From IMG/VR virus record IMGVR_UViG_643348547_000013: a DNA stretch of 46,955 nucleotides, one strand, 5' to 3'. The notes below the pieces were generated by a model. That model made no database searches. It saw only the letters and a list, made by a program, of their open reading frames with translations, and was not told where the DNA came from. The position numbers and the translations under genes were made by a program. The number at the start of each line of letters is the position of its first letter. The stretch's first letter is position 1. Below, piece after piece: positions 1-46,955 of this stretch. This stretch comes from a virus (Duplodnaviria > Heunggongvirae > Uroviricota > Caudoviricetes).

Positions 1-90
1 TTGCCTCCCCCCCGTTGATGGGTAAAATAGCCGCAATTTTTCGTTTTCAACAAGCGCGGCGCGATGCCGCTTACTCAAGAAGAAAGAATT

Positions 91-165
91 ATGACGTTGT
101 CTCCTTATTTGCAAGAGGTGGCGAAGCGCCGCACTTTTGCCATTATTTCTCACCCCAATAATTAA
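91..165 (+). pseudogene. prfC: prfC (release factor RF3) 5' fragment, interrupted after codon 22 by the prophage
   Basis: ATG at 91 translates [22 protein letters not shown], which I recall as the RF3 N-terminus; after 'caccc' (about 155) the frame reads NN-stop instead of the expected GTPase P-loop, marking a host/phage junction. Confidence 0.65.
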
Positions 166-319
166 GCCTAAATTAAAGCTCTTTTACTCTTTCAAAATCC
201 TTTCAGTTAATTGAGGTTGAGCAATATAACTCATTTAAATACATTTAGTTATGTGGCTTCTTTAATTGAAAATTCTTTCATGTAACTTTAAATCGATCTG
301 CTTGCTTTCATCAAAAATC

Positions 320-379
320 TGTACATATGCTTGTACATAATGTACAAAGCAGCAGAGGTGTTTTGCGATTTGTACAAGG
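320..379. promoter_or_regulatory. cluster of four TGTACA motifs immediately upstream of the integrase start
   Basis: TGTACA at 320, 332, 341 and 371; the same TGTAC(A/C) half-site forms the palindrome between repressor and cro (8068-8086). Confidence 0.3.
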
Positions 380-385
380 TGAGTA

Positions 386-1609
386 ATGGCGCTGTCTGAT
401 GCGTGGTTGCGTTCAGTCGTTGGAAAGGAACGTGATAAGGTTTTGGTTAAATCCGATCGTGATGGTCTGTCTGTCAGAGTATCACCGAAAGGTCGCGTAG
501 TGTTCCAATATCGTTATCAATGGGCAGGGAAAGGTGAGCGTCTTGATATCGGAACTTACCCGGCAACTGGATTAAAAGAGGCCAGAGAAGAAGTTATCCG
601 TCTCCGTGGTGAACTCGAGTCAAACCGTAATCCACGATTGGTCAAGCAGGCTGAAAAACGAAAAGCTACTGAAGCCATGACGGTAGAGTCTGTGATCCGT
701 GCCTGGTATGAAGCATATTGTGTAAAAAATAAAAAAGGCTCTGAACAGATACTCCGCTCGTTTGAGCTGCACCTGTTCTCTAAAATCGGGAATATCCCTC
801 ACGATGCAGCTACATTGCATGATTGGTTAGAAGTCCTGGAGCCTCTTAGCACTAAGACTCCAGCAATAGCAGACCGATTGCTAATTAACGCAAAGCAGGC
901 CCATGTCTGGGCGTATAAGAGAAAGCTCATTGAAACTCGCCCGCTGTCGGATATCACGGGTAAAGATATGGATATCCGTAAAGGTCAGAAGAAACGGTTT
1001 CTGACACATGATGAAATTAAAATCCTTTATGCTGCGATCGATGGTTCTCGAATGGTTCCTAAATACCGGGCCTTCATTAAACTATTGCTGCATTTTGGCT
1101 GCCGTAGTTCAGAGCTAATTACCGCCAGGGTGGACGATTTTGATTTCATTAATAAAGTATGGACTGTACCACCAGAACGACATAAGACTGGGGAGATAAC
1201 GGGCGAACCGCTAAAACGGCCCATTATTGAACCGGTTGAAGAGCTTATAAAGTACGCTATTTCTATGAACAATGGTTCCGATATGCTTTTTACTAAGGAA
1301 GGAAGCAGGGAACCCGTTGGTCGGACATCATTGCAGTCGCTGCCTTACAATTTAATGCAGTATGCATGGCGGCGTTTGGGGTATCAATTCCCTCATTGGT
1401 CTCTGCATGATTTGAGGCGAACAGCACGAACAAACTTTTCTGATCTTACTGCGCCTCATATCGCAGAAATAATGCTCGGTCATAAACTGCCGGGGGTATG
1501 GCAAGTTTATGACAAGAGTGATTATTTAGAAGAACAGCGTAAAGCCTACCAGGCATGGTGGGAGAGAGTTGAATCGATTGTTACTTGTTCTGGTTCAGAC
1601 ACCAACTGA
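386..1609 (+). CDS. tyrosine site-specific integrase, P4/IntS-like
   Basis: 407-aa ORF with C-terminal HDLRRT...Y region typical of P4-family integrases; sits at the prophage/host junction. Confidence 0.9.
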   Translation: MALSDAWLRSVVGKERDKVLVKSDRDGLSVRVSPKGRVVFQYRYQWAGKGERLDIGTYPATGLKEAREEVIRLRGELESNRNPRLVKQAEKRKATEAMTVESVIRAWYEAYCVKNKKGSEQILRSFELHLFSKIGNIPHDAATLHDWLEVLEPLSTKTPAIADRLLINAKQAHVWAYKRKLIETRPLSDITGKDMDIRKGQKKRFLTHDEIKILYAAIDGSRMVPKYRAFIKLLLHFGCRSSELITARVDDFDFINKVWTVPPERHKTGEITGEPLKRPIIEPVEELIKYAISMNNGSDMLFTKEGSREPVGRTSLQSLPYNLMQYAWRRLGYQFPHWSLHDLRRTARTNFSDLTAPHIAEIMLGHKLPGVWQVYDKSDYLEEQRKAYQAWWERVESIVTCSGSDTN

Positions 1610-1781
1610 CAGTTTGCATATTTTGAACGCAATAAAATATGACAGTCCGCTTTGAGCGAGGAGCGGATATATGATGTTTAGAAAACGCGCGATTTGCAGT
1701 TAAGCAATCTAAGTTACTGATGTACTATACTGGAACTGCTGGCCAGTTTGTGTTGAACACCATCATTATCACAATAAGGAA

Positions 1782-3035
1782 ATGAAAGTCGAAATGAATA
1801 CTAAACTTTTGGCCTATTTAAACAATGAGTTACATGGAGTGTGGATAGATAGTGAAAATCGTAATATCCACATAATACTTAAATCAAGCCTTCCTATAAT
1901 TAAATCCGTCTGGTCAGGAGCACCTATCCACTTTTTGGTAGGTTTATCTACTAAAAATATACTAGTGATTGGGATGTTGATTGAAGATAATGTCGATAAT
2001 CCATTTTTACTAGCCTATCCACCAAGAGAGGCAGATGAAATTAAAGGGCTGGATTTGTTATTGTCAGGCGCTTATGATGGTATTCTATTATCATTTTTTG
2101 ACTCGCATACAATGCGTGTTATGGACCTGAAAATAAAAATTTCGGAAAATTTACCGTGTGAATGTTTAAAAAAATTTTGTGCTAATTCATATTCTCTCAA
2201 TTCAGGATTTAGGGAAGGTAATGAAGCAATGGATGAATTCTGCAACAATGCTTTGACTGGTAACGAGAAAATAATTAGTCTGCCACTAAGTGTAATCGAT
2301 AAAAAATCTTACCTAGCAAGTGTTCATGAACCAAACGATACCGTATTAACATATGAATTTAGCGTCAGTGAAAACGGCTCTGAGGGATATGAGCAGGAAG
2401 CTCTTATATACCATGCTTTGCGGCAGGTCTTTTCACCGGAGGAAGTGTTTTTTTCTCCAGATATTATTGAGGGTAATAAAAAAAGAGAACTAGTTGATAT
2501 TCTTATTGTAGAAAATGACTATGTATTATCTATACAGTCTAAAGCATCATCTTTGATTGAAATGGGTTTAAAATCTCATGAAAAGCTTTGTAGCATGTAT
2601 AAGAAAAAAGCATTGCAAGGGATCGATCAGGTTAAAGGCGTTATCCCAATTCTAAATAATGATGTGGTTATTAATTATGACGGGAGGGAATGCTTAATAA
2701 AGCGCAGAAAGGGTATTTATCATTTAGTGATAATCTCAGATCTTGTTTTAGAGAAAGAAGGTGCTGAAAAGATTTATAACGAAATTAGCAACCTTAAAGA
2801 GTCAAAAGGGGCGAAAGTTTTAGTTATGAGCCTTGAAGGTCTTGTAAATTTTATAAGACTATCAAGATTAAATAAAAGAATGTTTTGGGCAATGCTGGAG
2901 ACTAAATACAAGTTCAGCATAAAAAACCGTACAATTTTAATTAGAGATATCGACTCTAGCCAAGAGAATAATCTACCATTACTTGCCACTGATCAATACC
3001 TATCACTTCTTCGAGGTACGGGAAAATTAAAATAA
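1782..3035 (+). CDS. hypothetical protein, AT-rich orphan cargo gene between int and xis
   Basis: Uninterrupted 417-aa ORF, visibly AT-rich against GC-richer flanks, convergent with the downstream early operon; no family recognised; possible D239...E244...QSK254 nuclease-like motif. Confidence 0.6.
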   Translation: MKVEMNTKLLAYLNNELHGVWIDSENRNIHIILKSSLPIIKSVWSGAPIHFLVGLSTKNILVIGMLIEDNVDNPFLLAYPPREADEIKGLDLLLSGAYDGILLSFFDSHTMRVMDLKIKISENLPCECLKKFCANSYSLNSGFREGNEAMDEFCNNALTGNEKIISLPLSVIDKKSYLASVHEPNDTVLTYEFSVSENGSEGYEQEALIYHALRQVFSPEEVFFSPDIIEGNKKRELVDILIVENDYVLSIQSKASSLIEMGLKSHEKLCSMYKKKALQGIDQVKGVIPILNNDVVINYDGRECLIKRRKGIYHLVIISDLVLEKEGAEKIYNEISNLKESKGAKVLVMSLEGLVNFIRLSRLNKRMFWAMLETKYKFSIKNRTILIRDIDSSQENNLPLLATDQYLSLLRGTGKLK

Positions 3036-3320: not shown

Positions 3321-3515
3321 TTACTCAATTACTCCTGCAAACCTGTATATCTTACGTGATGCCCATTTATTTGGGCAGGATTTAATATCAGGATCTGGAA
3401 AATCAGGCCGATATTTCTGACCAGTCCTCCGGTTTACACTGTTCCAGCGAAGCACCGTCGATATTGAAACGCCACAGAATTCGGCGACTTGTTTTGTTGT
3501 CATTAAGTTGTTCAT
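3321..3515 (-). CDS. excisionase / AlpA-like HTH DNA-binding protein
   Basis: Start chosen at internal Met (MNNLMTTKQVAEFCGVSISTVLRW) preceded by AGGAGGG; ATGA overlap with upstream gene stop; helix-turn-helix signature. Confidence 0.7.
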   Translation of the reverse strand: MNNLMTTKQVAEFCGVSISTVLRWNSVNRRTGQKYRPDFPDPDIKSCPNKWASRKIYRFAGVIE

Positions 3516-42697: not shown

Positions 42698-44755
42698 ATG
42701 ACAGTAAAAATTTCTGGCGTGCTTAAAGATGGCACAGGAAAACCAGTACAGAACTGCACCATTGTGCTGAAGGCCAGACGGACCAGCAGCACGGTGGTGG
42801 TGAACACGGTGGCCTCTGAAAATCCGGATGAAGCCGGGCGTTACAGCATGGATGTTGAGTATGGCCAGTACAGCGTCACCCTGCTGGTTGAAGGTTTTCC
42901 GCCTTCACATGCCGGGACCATTACCGTCTATGAAGGTTCCAGACCAGGTACGCTGAATGATTTTCTCGGTGCCATGACGGAGGATGATGTTCGTCCGGAG
43001 GCACTGCGCCGTTTTGAGCTGATGGTGAATGAAGTGGCACGTCATGCCGGAGCATCATCACAGAGCGCAGCGGCAGCAAAGAAATCCGAAACTGCAGCGG
43101 CATCATCGAAGAACGCGGCGAAAACCTCAGAAACGAATGCAGCTAACAGCGCACAGGCGGCAGCGGCCTCGCAGACTGCATCGGCAAACTCCGCGACAGC
43201 AGCCAAAAAATCAGAAACCAGCGCGAAAAATAGCGAGACAGCCACAAAGGCCAGCGAAAAAAACGCAAAATCCAGCCAGACGGCAGCGAAAACCAGTGAG
43301 ACGAATGCCAAAGACAGTGAAGCCAACGCAAAGGTGAGCGAAACAGCGGCGGCGAACTCGGCGAAAGCATCGGCAGCAAGCCAGACGGCAGCAAAAGCAA
43401 GTGAAGATGCTGCCAGAGAATACGCAAACCAGACAGCAGAGCCGTACAGATATGTTTTACAGCCGCTGCCGGATGTGTGGATACCCTTTAATGATTCGCT
43501 GGATATGATTACGGGCTATTCTCCGGGTTATAAAAAAGTGAAGATTGGTGATAATGTGGTTCAGGTTGCCAGTGATAAACAGGTTAATTTCAGTCGCGCA
43601 TCAACGGCAACATATATCAACAAATCTGGCGAACTGAAAACGGCGGAAATTAATGAGCCACGATTTGAAAAAGAAGGTTTATTGATTGAAGGTCAGCGAA
43701 CCAACTACATGTTGAATTCAGCAACTCCAGCTTCTTGGGGTAAATCTGCAAATATGAATGTCGCTGAGGTTGGAACTGATAGTTTTGGTTTTACTTATGG
43801 AAAGTTTGTTTGTAATGAATCATTAATTGGGCAAAGTACAACCCTTAATATGGCAGTAGTTTCAACCTCGGGGGCTGTCGATGTATCAGGCGATAATAAG
43901 TGTGTGACGACATCGTGCAGATTTAAAACGGATTTGGAACTCCTGTTAAGGATCAGGTTTGAAGCCTTCGATGGCAGCGCTTCATCTAATCTTGGATATG
44001 CCATTGTTAATACGCGGTCTTTATTGGTTGAAATCACCGGTGTAGCTGCCGACAGGCTCACCGCACGAGTTAGCAAAGATGAAGCTACGGGCTGGATTTT
44101 TGTAGAGGCAACGATTCAAGCAAGTAAAGAAACTTACATAACCTCTGCAATACAATACGCACCAAAATCTGGTGGCGTCGTTGAATCTGGTGACTATATT
44201 TATCTGGCCACTCCTCAGGTTGAGGATGGTTCGTGTGTATCATCTTTTATTATATCAGGAACGACGGCGGCGACGCGCGCAAGCGATATGGTGACAGTTC
44301 CGATTAAGAATAATCTTTATAATCTTCCTTTTACGGTTCTTTGTGAGGTACATAAGAACTGGTATAAAACGCCAAATGCAGCACCGCGTGTTTTTGACAC
44401 ATACCGGCATCAGGCAGATGCGGGGATCGTAATGGGGTTTGGTTCATCAGGTGGGTACGACGGTTTTCCGTATTGTGATATAGGTGGTTCAAACCGACGA
44501 ATAAATGAAAATGCCGGGCTGGAAAAAATGCTTATTGGTATGCGGGTAAAGTCCGAACGGTCCACATGTGTAGTCAGTAACGGTAAGTTAAGCAGCGAAA
44601 CTAAAACCAAATGGGAATATATCCGGAGTACAGCAACCATTCGCATTGGTGGACAAACTACAGCAGGATTACGCCATTTATTTGGGCATGTGAGGAATTT
44701 TCGTCTCTGGCATAAAGAGCTAACAGATGCGCAGCTTGGGGAGGTTGTGGAGTGA
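42698..44755 (+). CDS. stf: side tail fibre protein with non-lambda C-terminal receptor-binding domain
   Basis: N-terminus MTVKISGVLKDGTGKPVQNCTI recalled from lambda Stf; Ala/Ser/Lys repeat shaft; C-terminal third is lower-GC and ends in a LamG/ConA-lectin-like signature. Confidence 0.8.
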   Translation: MTVKISGVLKDGTGKPVQNCTIVLKARRTSSTVVVNTVASENPDEAGRYSMDVEYGQYSVTLLVEGFPPSHAGTITVYEGSRPGTLNDFLGAMTEDDVRPEALRRFELMVNEVARHAGASSQSAAAAKKSETAAASSKNAAKTSETNAANSAQAAAASQTASANSATAAKKSETSAKNSETATKASEKNAKSSQTAAKTSETNAKDSEANAKVSETAAANSAKASAASQTAAKASEDAAREYANQTAEPYRYVLQPLPDVWIPFNDSLDMITGYSPGYKKVKIGDNVVQVASDKQVNFSRASTATYINKSGELKTAEINEPRFEKEGLLIEGQRTNYMLNSATPASWGKSANMNVAEVGTDSFGFTYGKFVCNESLIGQSTTLNMAVVSTSGAVDVSGDNKCVTTSCRFKTDLELLLRIRFEAFDGSASSNLGYAIVNTRSLLVEITGVAADRLTARVSKDEATGWIFVEATIQASKETYITSAIQYAPKSGGVVESGDYIYLATPQVEDGSCVSSFIISGTTAATRASDMVTVPIKNNLYNLPFTVLCEVHKNWYKTPNAAPRVFDTYRHQADAGIVMGFGSSGGYDGFPYCDIGGSNRRINENAGLEKMLIGMRVKSERSTCVVSNGKLSSETKTKWEYIRSTATIRIGGQTTAGLRHLFGHVRNFRLWHKELTDAQLGEVVE

Positions 44756-45030
44756 GAGATTTCACGTTGCGTTTCAGTGATAAAGCAGATTTCAGGGCAT
44801 TTCTCAGGAAACTTAACTGGGAAGAGGACGAAGAGCTGCAGAATGCCGTTCTGGTTGATGAGATTGGTTTTACGTTCAGGGAGACAGATGTTTCTGATGA
44901 CGGAGAACCAGAATACACGCGAAACGAAGGGTACTTTGTTAATATCCGTCTTCTTGACGATGGATTTGATGATTCCGTGTTCCGTGAGTGGGTGGTTACA
45001 CCAGAGCGCCCGCTCAGGGAGTGGTTTTAA
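44752..45030 (+). CDS. hypothetical acidic protein
   Basis: 92-aa ORF (GTG start overlapping stf stop); no family recognised. Confidence 0.4.
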   Translation: MRDFTLRFSDKADFRAFLRKLNWEEDEELQNAVLVDEIGFTFRETDVSDDGEPEYTRNEGYFVNIRLLDDGFDDSVFREWVVTPERPLREWF

Positions 45031-45039
45031 GGATAGCAG

Positions 45040-45333
45040 ATGGATATCACGTCGATACTTCATGCGCTTTGTGCCGTGGCGGTGCAGGTACTGGCTGGTC
45101 TTTTTACCGGAAACTGGGCTTACGGGGCGATAGCTGGTTGTACGTTCTTCATTGCGCGTGAACACACCCAGGCAGAATATCGCTGGATTGAAATGTTCGG
45201 GCATGGCAAGCGAATGAATATGCCGTGGTGGGGCGGTTTTGATCCGCGCGCGTGGGATGTGGCAAGCCTGATGGATTTTGCTGTGCCGGTGGTGGCGTGT
45301 CTGCTGGTCTGGCTGTTGGTTAATCGTGGGTGA
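45040..45333 (+). CDS. hypothetical small membrane protein (two predicted TM helices)
   Basis: 97-aa ORF with hydrophobic N- and C-terminal segments. Confidence 0.45.
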   Translation: MDITSILHALCAVAVQVLAGLFTGNWAYGAIAGCTFFIAREHTQAEYRWIEMFGHGKRMNMPWWGGFDPRAWDVASLMDFAVPVVACLLVWLLVNRG

Positions 45334-45343
45334 AAAAAGGTGA

Positions 45344-45472
45344 GCTGTATATGCAACGGAGGAAGAAACTCCGTTGCTGGAAGCCTGGAAGAAGTATCGG
45401 GTGTTGCTGAACCGTGTTGATACATCAACTGCACCTGATATTGAGTGGCCTGCGGTCCCTGTTATGGAGTAA
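45344..45472 (+). pseudogene. tfa: 3' remnant of tail fibre assembly gene tfa
   Basis: Frame encodes ...[40 protein letters not shown], matching the conserved Tfa C-terminus; in-frame stop at 45341-45343 and no start codon. Confidence 0.7.
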
Positions 45473-45584
45473 TCGTTTTGTGATATGCCGCAGCAACTTG
45501 TCATGGCAGGATACTGCGGCTGATTTGTGAATTTAAATAGTGTGTTTATTGCTTTATATATAAAGGATTTAATGGATTACATAT

Positions 45585-46955
45585 CTATGATATCCCTGAA
45601 ATGTCCTCTTCAAGCTCTTTTACTGATTTCGCAATTTTAAATTTAAATTTTCTCTCTATTTCACTATTGCTAAGTTTTTTTTCATTCTCTTTCCCTATCC
45701 ACATAGAAACAATTTCTCGTTTCTGAGATATATGTAGATTGTCAAAGTTAGGTATGTATTTAAAAGTCTCCGCTCTACCCCTGCGGAGTTCATAGAAAGT
45801 TTTAATCAAAGACTTTGGTTTTATTTCTGATGAAAGGCCGAATCGGCGGATAAGATTATTGATCGTATGATTAACAGCTCGAAGTTGAGCTGTTGACGTT
45901 ATTTGTGAGAAGTACGATACCCATCCCAATCGTTTACCTTCAAACACACATCCCGTAATTCTAAGATTTAGTTTCCACTGACAATATGCAACAGCTCGTT
46001 CTTTATCGCGCTTATTTTTAGCTTGTAGTAGAGCGTGTCTATATGCAGTAAAAATTTTTGCTAAGGATGACTCAAATCTAAGAATGCTCTCATGTTTTAT
46101 CAATAATTCTCGATTTTTTATGTGGTAGCCCAAAAAGTTGAAACTTTCATCCAAGCTGCCTACTTTGGATTTTGAGTTCTCTTCATTTAATGGATGTGGG
46201 TTTAAATTTAATGATTGAAGCTTATCAATGATATGAGATGCAATTTTTGTTGCTTGATCTTTTTGCGTTAAAATAAGAATGTCATCAACGTATCGCATGT
46301 ACCATATGTCATGCATTTTATTGATTTCATTGTCGAAATCAGATAGTGATATTTCAGCTAAAATGTTTGATATTGCTAACCCCTGAGGTACTCCTCTGGT
46401 ATTATTAGGGACACCTTTGCTTCCTGTACTTCCACTTACAGTAGGCACGATTAATGATGATGTTATTAACTGCCTAATTTCTTTTTTTCTAATCTTATTT
46501 TTTATTGCATTAAATATCAATTTATGTTCAATTGAAGGATAGAAACTTTTGAGATCTATTTTTGCATATTCAGCATATAGATCGCTGTTTAATGCATTTT
46601 TCAATAAGTCAATTACTGTATGTGGTAGTTTTAATCTGGAGTTAGGATATATTTCTGTAAGGCATTCACAGAGAGCCCTAAGGGTAATTCTGTCCCTGGC
46701 AGTTGGTATGGAAATCTGTCTGGGGATAGAGTTAGCCCCTTTAGATATTAATTTTTCTTTATATGCTGTAAATTTATAATTTCCACAATTAACCTTTTCA
46801 AAAATAAAAGTGATCTCATTCTTTATTGTTAAATCAAGTTTTGATGGACGAATCCGATCTATGCCAATCGCTCCTGATTCTTTGATTTTTTCATTGTATA
46901 CTTTTAGAAGGTTTTTTTTCGAGAATGACTTTTTAAAAACTCTGCTTGCATTCAT
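45585..46955 (-). CDS. standalone reverse transcriptase (retron / Abi / DRT-like), family unresolved
   Basis: 456-aa AT-rich ORF with RT motifs in order: PRQISIPTARDRITLRAL, NALNS...KIDLKSFYPSI, PQGLAISNILAEI, YVDD (YMRYVDDILIL), FNFLGYHI, then a roughly 180-aa C-terminal extension; start codon sits at the window edge. Confidence 0.85.
   Translation of the reverse strand: MNASRVFKKSFSKKNLLKVYNEKIKESGAIGIDRIRPSKLDLTIKNEITFIFEKVNCGNYKFTAYKEKLISKGANSIPRQISIPTARDRITLRALCECLTEIYPNSRLKLPHTVIDLLKNALNSDLYAEYAKIDLKSFYPSIEHKLIFNAIKNKIRKKEIRQLITSSLIVPTVSGSTGSKGVPNNTRGVPQGLAISNILAEISLSDFDNEINKMHDIWYMRYVDDILILTQKDQATKIASHIIDKLQSLNLNPHPLNEENSKSKVGSLDESFNFLGYHIKNRELLIKHESILRFESSLAKIFTAYRHALLQAKNKRDKERAVAYCQWKLNLRITGCVFEGKRLGWVSYFSQITSTAQLRAVNHTINNLIRRFGLSSEIKPKSLIKTFYELRRGRAETFKYIPNFDNLHISQKREIVSMWIGKENEKKLSNSEIERKFKFKIAKSVKELEEDISGIS

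Follow-up and report, generated by a model that had tools for sequence, protein, structure and literature searches.

The 46,955-bp stretch of DNA analysed here, referred to as the window, opens with the 5' end of prfC, the gene for RF3, and passes from there into phage DNA, and the question that this locus raises is what such an insertion leaves of the gene. Two outcomes are conceivable, namely that (i) the far end of the prophage supplies a replacement 5' end for prfC; or (ii) RF3 is inactivated. A preliminary description of this DNA had posed the same alternative and had placed the deciding attR end outside the window. In our view, it is very probable that a temperate lambdoid phage of the cdtI type integrated by attP x attB recombination inside prfC, and that a mini-gene carried on its attP rebuilds the prfC open reading frame at attR. 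The coding replacement can be seen directly in related genomes, in which a phage-borne ATG and 21 codons stand in frame with the remainder of prfC.

The left junction and the integration module

In Escherichia coli K-12 MG1655, the unoccupied locus consists of yjjG, a 90-bp spacer and prfC, and the window is 100% identical to it over positions 1 to 155, that is from the base after the yjjG stop codon to prfC codon 21 plus two bases. The native yjjG-prfC intergenic region (1 to 90, plus strand; positions 3325 to 3414 of the MG1655 locus, L003) holds the ribosome-binding region of prfC and a putative promoter, a 9/12 match composed of TTGCCT (1 to 6), a 16-nt spacer and TAAAAT (23 to 28). Base 156 is the first mismatch (C; K-12 has G), and since this change leaves a proline, codon 22 is still Pro. 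After codon 22, K-12 continues with GAC GCC GGT AAG (D-A-G-K, of the P-loop), whereas the window reads AAT AAT TAA. Positions 91 to 156 are consequently translated as the prfC N-terminus ending in ISHP, which is followed by two asparagines and a stop codon at 163 to 165. What remains at attL is a truncated prfC stub of 24 codons (91 to 165, plus strand), made up of 21 native codons and two bases followed by the phage-derived C-AAT-AAT-TAA, which halts 220 bases 5' of int; in other genomes the same stretch is labelled in RefSeq as an incomplete CDS with a missing C-terminus. It had been proposed from the letters alone that the window begins with the first 22 codons of prfC, that it diverges after 'caccc' at about 155, and that the integrase follows right downstream, and all three statements hold: the codons match RF3, their upstream region is the K-12 spacer, the comparison with the unoccupied locus places the break at base 156, and the next open reading frame carries three integrase domains.

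The junction between prfC and int is neither a chance arrangement nor an assembly artefact, as at least 80% of window positions 1 to 1700 could be recovered in 698 of the 5,426 complete E. coli genomes, the criterion by which the attL type was counted. Four matches to the junction region within the E. coli genome collection lie on records labelled plasmid. Many IMG/VR prophage contigs start exactly 385 bp upstream of int, which is also the start point of the window.

The integrase (386 to 1609, plus strand; 407 aa) is a tyrosine recombinase of the prfC-targeting type. Its Pfam domains, Arm-DNA-bind_3 (E 1.9e-16), Phage_int_M (E 1.3e-7) and Phage_integrase (E 1e-17), all score above the cut-offs, and it is identical to the Int protein of phage cdtI at 399 of 405 positions (99%). 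An alignment of 20 integrase sequences shows R240, K267, R344, H366 and Y375 to be invariant and H341 to be conserved in at least 90%. From the standard spacing in lambda Int, we take R240, K267, H341, R344, H366 and Y375 to be the catalytic R-K-H-R-H-Y residues.

Between the junction and int lies the non-coding, AT-rich P' arm of the phage attP (156 to 385, plus strand). It carries TGTACA at positions 320, 332, 341 and 371, including the tandem TGTACATATGcTTGTACATAAT, and these four copies, clustered at 320 to 376 just upstream of int, are more than half of the seven found in the whole 46,955-bp window. The opposite arm, at attR, has four more, and the tandem unit TGTACATATGnTTGTACATAAT is found on both arms. 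Because the integrase has an arm-binding domain, the TGTACA repeats are likely candidates for its arm sites.

A 64-aa excisionase, the recombination directionality factor, is encoded with the early-left genes (3321 to 3515, minus strand); it was assigned through PHROGs (phrog_1553 'excisionase', E 2.3e-35), and in Pfam it gives weak helix-turn-helix matches only. Between int and xis lies an open reading frame for 417 aa (1782 to 3035, plus strand), for which phrog_30399, a family of unknown function, was the sole match, with none in Pfam or PADLOC. A D...E-x-K-like stretch (VDILIVENDYVLSIQSK), picked out by eye, suggests a possible nuclease fold, and the position of the gene suggests accessory cargo.

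The right end, the core and the reconstructed attP

The window stops at the start codon of a minus-strand reverse-transcriptase gene, so that attR does lie beyond it. We read attR from genomes that share the window's ends, namely NZ_CP085074 (strain H1) at the left and FDAARGOS_1288 (NZ_CP070007) at both. The latter matches window positions 1 to 1700 and 44700 to 46955 at 100%. Past the point at which the window stops it continues, in this order, with a SLATT-domain gene, a frameshifted dinI-like gene, a 219-bp spacer and a chimeric prfC. In this chimera, which lies some 1.2 kb past the end of the window, phage DNA contributes the ATG and 21 codons, and these are joined in frame, at a 14-bp core, to prfC from codon 23 onward. 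The remainder of prfC, which had been expected past the right end, is thus present there, and so is the expected repeat of the core, a second ATTATTTCTCACCC lying about 1.26 kb past the window end. RefSeq gives an intact prfC of 528 aa in both NZ_CP085074 and NZ_CP070007, in H1 directly downstream of a divergent dinI-like gene, and its annotation shows an unbroken prfC in each occupied genome of the sample. We dropped H1 as a proxy for the right end, as its cargo, a TIR-domain reverse transcriptase, differs by BLAST; its attR junction is the same as that of FDAARGOS_1288. For the window's own element we would hence predict, past base 46955, the SLATT gene, dinI and then ATGACAAGCCTTTTGGCCGCAGAGGTAGCGAAAAGAAGAACCTTTGCAATTATTTCTCACCC fused to GGACGCCGGTAAG.

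This prediction would fail if the right end of this particular element had been deleted or rearranged, in which case the replacement 5' end of the other strains would not apply. None of the complete E. coli genomes searched is collinear with the whole window, and H1 shows that the right-end cargo can be a different one. Two genomes, however, match the last 2.2 kb at 100%, and one of them, FDAARGOS_1288, then runs through SLATT and dinI into the chimeric prfC; furthermore, the attR type was counted in 686 of the 5,426 genomes (about 13%, as for attL), a number nearly equal to that of the attL type, and strains with other cargo keep the same attR. We therefore regard a deviating right end as highly improbable.

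The attL copy of the core occupies positions 142 to 155, is the single occurrence of ATTATTTCTCACCC within the window and encodes I-I-S-H-P, which in RF3 sits just before the GTPase P-loop. It is the sole stretch common to attL, attR and attB. In a three-way alignment, attB is reproduced exactly when the left part of attL is put before the right part of attR, and the core lengthens from 14 to 20 bp if one mismatch is allowed. As judged from this alignment, strand exchange must fall within the 14 bp. Records of Stx phages annotate the identical 14 bp as a 'duplication due to insertion'. The reverse assignment, with the window copy of the prfC start being phage-borne and the attR copy native, was considered and is excluded, as K-12 has the window version beside yjjG and free phages have the other.

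For the reconstruction of attP, the phage side of attR was joined to the phage side of attL, and phage genomes were searched with the join. It is found as one contiguous match in Escherichia phage 2H10 (98%) and in phage cdtI (97.2%); in phage Ayreon the match is partial, being contiguous from 230 bp left of the core. The int side is matched by many Stx1a, Stx2a and Stx2c prophage records. When read directly, the attP sites of cdtI and Ayreon both carry the prfC mini-gene. One base left of the core, Ayreon has C (L005, position 1718), whereas cdtI (L004, position 2010) and the prophage attR copies have A, and Ayreon attP thus shares 20 bp of unbroken identity with E. coli attB. This could be the trace of past cycles of integration and excision, or the exchange region could reach further to the left.

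Both junctions, with attR taken from genomes that have the same ends, support the view that the prophage is integrated inside the 5' coding region of prfC, and they suggest the following course of events. The P arm of attP carries a mini-gene composed of a ribosome-binding region, an ATG and 21 codons ending in the core, and exchange with the attB in prfC takes place within the 14-bp ATTATTTCTCACCC. At attL, the host promoter and the first 22 codons are then left as a 24-codon stub running into phage DNA, while at attR the mini-gene is joined in frame to prfC codon 23 onward, giving an RF3 of 528 aa. On the circular phage genome, mini-gene, core, P' arm and int follow one another on one strand, so that integration swaps the upstream regions: prfC gains that of the phage, and int falls behind the upstream region of host prfC and the stub. 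After integration, int would presumably lie downstream of the host prfC promoter with no terminator in between; a scan for terminator-like sites over positions 156 to 385, between the stub and int, found none.

Coding capacity and possible promoter of the rebuilt prfC

Around the start codon, the native and phage 5' ends have AATTATGAC in common. They differ in codons 3 to 8, the phage copy being one codon shorter, and then encode the same 14-residue segment. In the chimeric RF3 of 528 aa, only the first eight residues are replaced, by seven, and from RF3 residue 9 the protein is identical, over the 100 residues compared, to the E. coli RF3 of the solved structures. The replaced residues belong to a part of RF3 in which species differ naturally, and a 10-residue segment is invariant in every stub seen. 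Across codons 9 to 17, the nine before the core, 8 of the 27 bases are different in the phage and the native copy, and every one of these changes is synonymous; when eight substitutions were placed at random, not one of 200,000 placements kept the peptide. At the level of sequence, this argues that the coding capacity of the phage-supplied prfC 5' end is maintained. It has to be added that the all-synonymous pattern could predate capture, from a time at which the segment belonged to the prfC of another host, rather than reflect selection within the phage.

Whether the rebuilt gene is expressed is a separate matter. Any promoter for it must sit in the 219-bp spacer between dinI and prfC, because the genes upstream point the other way. 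A scan for sigma-70 consensus sequences upstream of the phage-supplied ATG, in the direction of prfC, gave no match of at least 9/12. A relaxed scan of the spacer in the same direction returned 8/12 candidates only, the nearest of them ending 16 nt before the ATG, and the best would give a leader of about 10 nt. We nevertheless infer that transcription of the chimera would start at a phage promoter within this spacer and that active RF3 would be made.

The opposite outcome would be that RF3 is effectively inactivated, the chimeric open reading frame having lost its promoter and ribosome-binding site and being unexpressed or its product poorly active, which would be tolerated as prfC is dispensable. 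Apart from the result of the consensus scan, this outcome can draw on the literature. Ogura et al. [quoted passage not shown] Bobay et al. count prfC as one of the genes that prophages disrupt. In each of the occupied genomes examined, however, the open reading frame is unbroken and in frame, all eight base differences over the conserved codons are synonymous, and AATTATGAC is kept around the start codon in both the phage and the native copies. In addition, for SXT this design has been reported to bring both a working promoter and an N-terminus, and the same cut point recurs in 19 genomes, as would be expected if the design preserves the gene. Taken together, we consider inactivation improbable and keep to the reading that the phage rebuilds prfC. 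Surveys that score prfC as prophage-disrupted, such as that of Bobay et al., would miss the rebuilt open reading frame.

A more far-reaching proposal would be that integration is a promoter swap with physiological consequences, in which RF3, with its phage-encoded N-terminus, is made from a phage promoter among the arm sites, about 200 bp from the LexA-boxed control sequences of dinI, and its level is tied to the prophage state or to SOS. We would call this unlikely. If it were true, termination fidelity and quality control would be tied to the prophage state or SOS in about one in eight E. coli strains, and int would be placed under the host prfC promoter by the same swap. Two LexA-box-like sequences (CTG-N10-CAG, for instance CTGTATAAATAAACAG) are found upstream of the phage dinI-like gene, in the attR-side spacer outside the window (at about 32990 to 33040 in L001 and about 8262 to 8310 in L087), some 170 to 220 bp from the phage-supplied prfC start codon. 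They presumably control dinI.

Prophage body, spread of the cut point and related systems

The remainder of the window (156 to 46955) is the body of a lambdoid prophage, with an integration module, early genes, lysis genes, head and tail genes, a tail fibre and defence cargo in its map of open reading frames. In the prophage with the same ends in FDAARGOS_1288, RefSeq annotates a repressor, a Q antiterminator, holin and lysozyme, terminase, portal, capsid, tape measure, J and tail fibre. This annotation, the window's own map and the excisionase match together give the layout of a lambdoid temperate phage, with repressor and Q, lysis, head, tail, int and xis, and the window also has large matches to phage structural genes. 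The best 80 matches of an IMG/VR scan were all near-identical E. coli prophage calls. Prophages that share both ends with the window differ from it in length by about 4.8 to 6 kb, and their middle regions are mosaic.

At the right edge of the window (45585 to 46955, minus strand), its last gene encodes a 456-aa reverse transcriptase that matches the PADLOC model RT_UG17 with E 8e-159. Where another genome has the identical right end, a SLATT-domain gene that overlaps the reverse-transcriptase gene stands in front of it (L087, 7234 to 7785) and matches RTasSLATT with E 3e-57. From these matches, RT_UG17 and SLATT form a candidate anti-phage pair of the DRT class, carried as cargo beside attR. 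The sister prophage of NZ_CP085074, integrated at the same site, has in their place an anti-phage reverse transcriptase with a TIR domain, and the position beside attR therefore looks like a swappable slot for defence genes.

One could also suspect a fixed, defective prophage whose junctions are fossils of an old integration and in which int, xis, attL and attR are no longer functional. In FDAARGOS_1288 the dinI-like gene next to attR has a frameshift, genes for tail-fibre assembly close to the right end carry partial annotations, and the length differs by several kb among prophages sharing these ends, all of which would fit with decay. The 407-aa integrase and the excisionase are, on the other hand, intact with the catalytic residues conserved, all lambdoid modules are present, and near-identical attP-int modules occur in phages that were isolated as free particles (cdtI, 2H10 and Ayreon). 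A defective element seems rather unlikely to us for these reasons, and the nature of the prfC junction would be unchanged either way.

Judged by sequence, about 13% of complete E. coli genomes encode this chimeric RF3. Beyond E. coli, integrase relatives were mapped with a single genome standing for each species, which gave 80 loci. At 19 of them, with integrases of 47 to 99% identity, a prfC stub ends exactly in ...ISHP, 196 to 234 bp upstream of int, and runs through 0 to 9 foreign codons before its stop, with one exception. The 19 genomes are those of one E. coli and 18 other species, the genera including Escherichia, Pantoea, Serratia, Pseudomonas, Marinobacterium, Methylomonas, Methylobacter, Kangiella, Rheinheimera, Halomonas, Variovorax and Microbulbifer, with a Burkholderiaceae genome in addition. 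As the stubs share this end, the cut point in prfC can be regarded as a conserved property of the integrase lineage. Most of the remaining relatives (30 to 53% identity; Xenorhabdus, Photorhabdus and Morganella among them) had no such prfC stub and presumably use other sites. The phage employs highly conserved codons before the P-loop of RF3 as a broad-host attachment site and repairs the gene that it cuts. Other types of element at E. coli prfC were sought through partial attR matches, and the two checked proved to be unoccupied loci with sequence variants.

The arrangement itself is already known, from phage cdtI, from Shiga-toxin phages (Ogura et al., 2007) and from the SXT element, and the window is an ordinary instance of it. 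Closest is the lambdoid phage cdtI (NC_009514 / AB285204), for which insertion at prfC has been reported (PMC8138268, citing Asakura et al., 2007). It has the same attP with the same prfC mini-gene and a dinI-like gene alongside, in addition to the integrase that is identical at 399 of 405 positions. The cargo beside attP is cdtABC in cdtI and the UG17 reverse transcriptase with the SLATT protein in the element of the window, and the rest is mosaic. Stx1a and Stx2c converting phages also integrate at prfC (PMC2323221; Nakamura et al., 2023, PMC10132054), which figures in published lists of Stx-phage sites. In the corresponding records (LC727876 and following), attL shows the same duplicated core of 14 bp, and identity over the int region is 95%. 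These phages carry stx, whereas the comparison prophage of FDAARGOS_1288, relative to which the window is about 4.8 kb longer, has no annotated stx.

Smyshlyaev et al. (PMC8138268) placed the integrases of cdtI phage and SXT in one cluster with members inserting at prfC. Of the traits of this IntSXT cluster, a three-domain tyrosine recombinase with its catalytic residues, an attB in the 5' end of prfC, an attP that is contiguous in free phages and a prfC open reading frame restored in genomes with the same junctions are found for this type of element; for a further trait, an element-supplied promoter, the spacer offers the 8/12 candidates. The kinship of its integrase to the cluster would rest on that study and on the 99% identity to cdtI Int; IntSXT itself was sought among homologue clusters, and the four inspected held Pantoea, Pseudomonas and marine-bacterial integrases, one of them being without named members.

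[quoted passage not shown] Insertion into prfC with an element-supplied start was reportedly described for SXT by Hochhut and Waldor in 1999. SXT/R391 elements are, however, conjugative elements of about 100 kb with near-identical IntSXT and a conserved transfer backbone, whereas the element of the window is a tailed-phage genome of about 48 kb. As it is a lambdoid phage genome that, by the annotation of the prophage with the same ends and by the window's own map of open reading frames, lacks transfer genes, it is not a member of that family. [quoted passage not shown]
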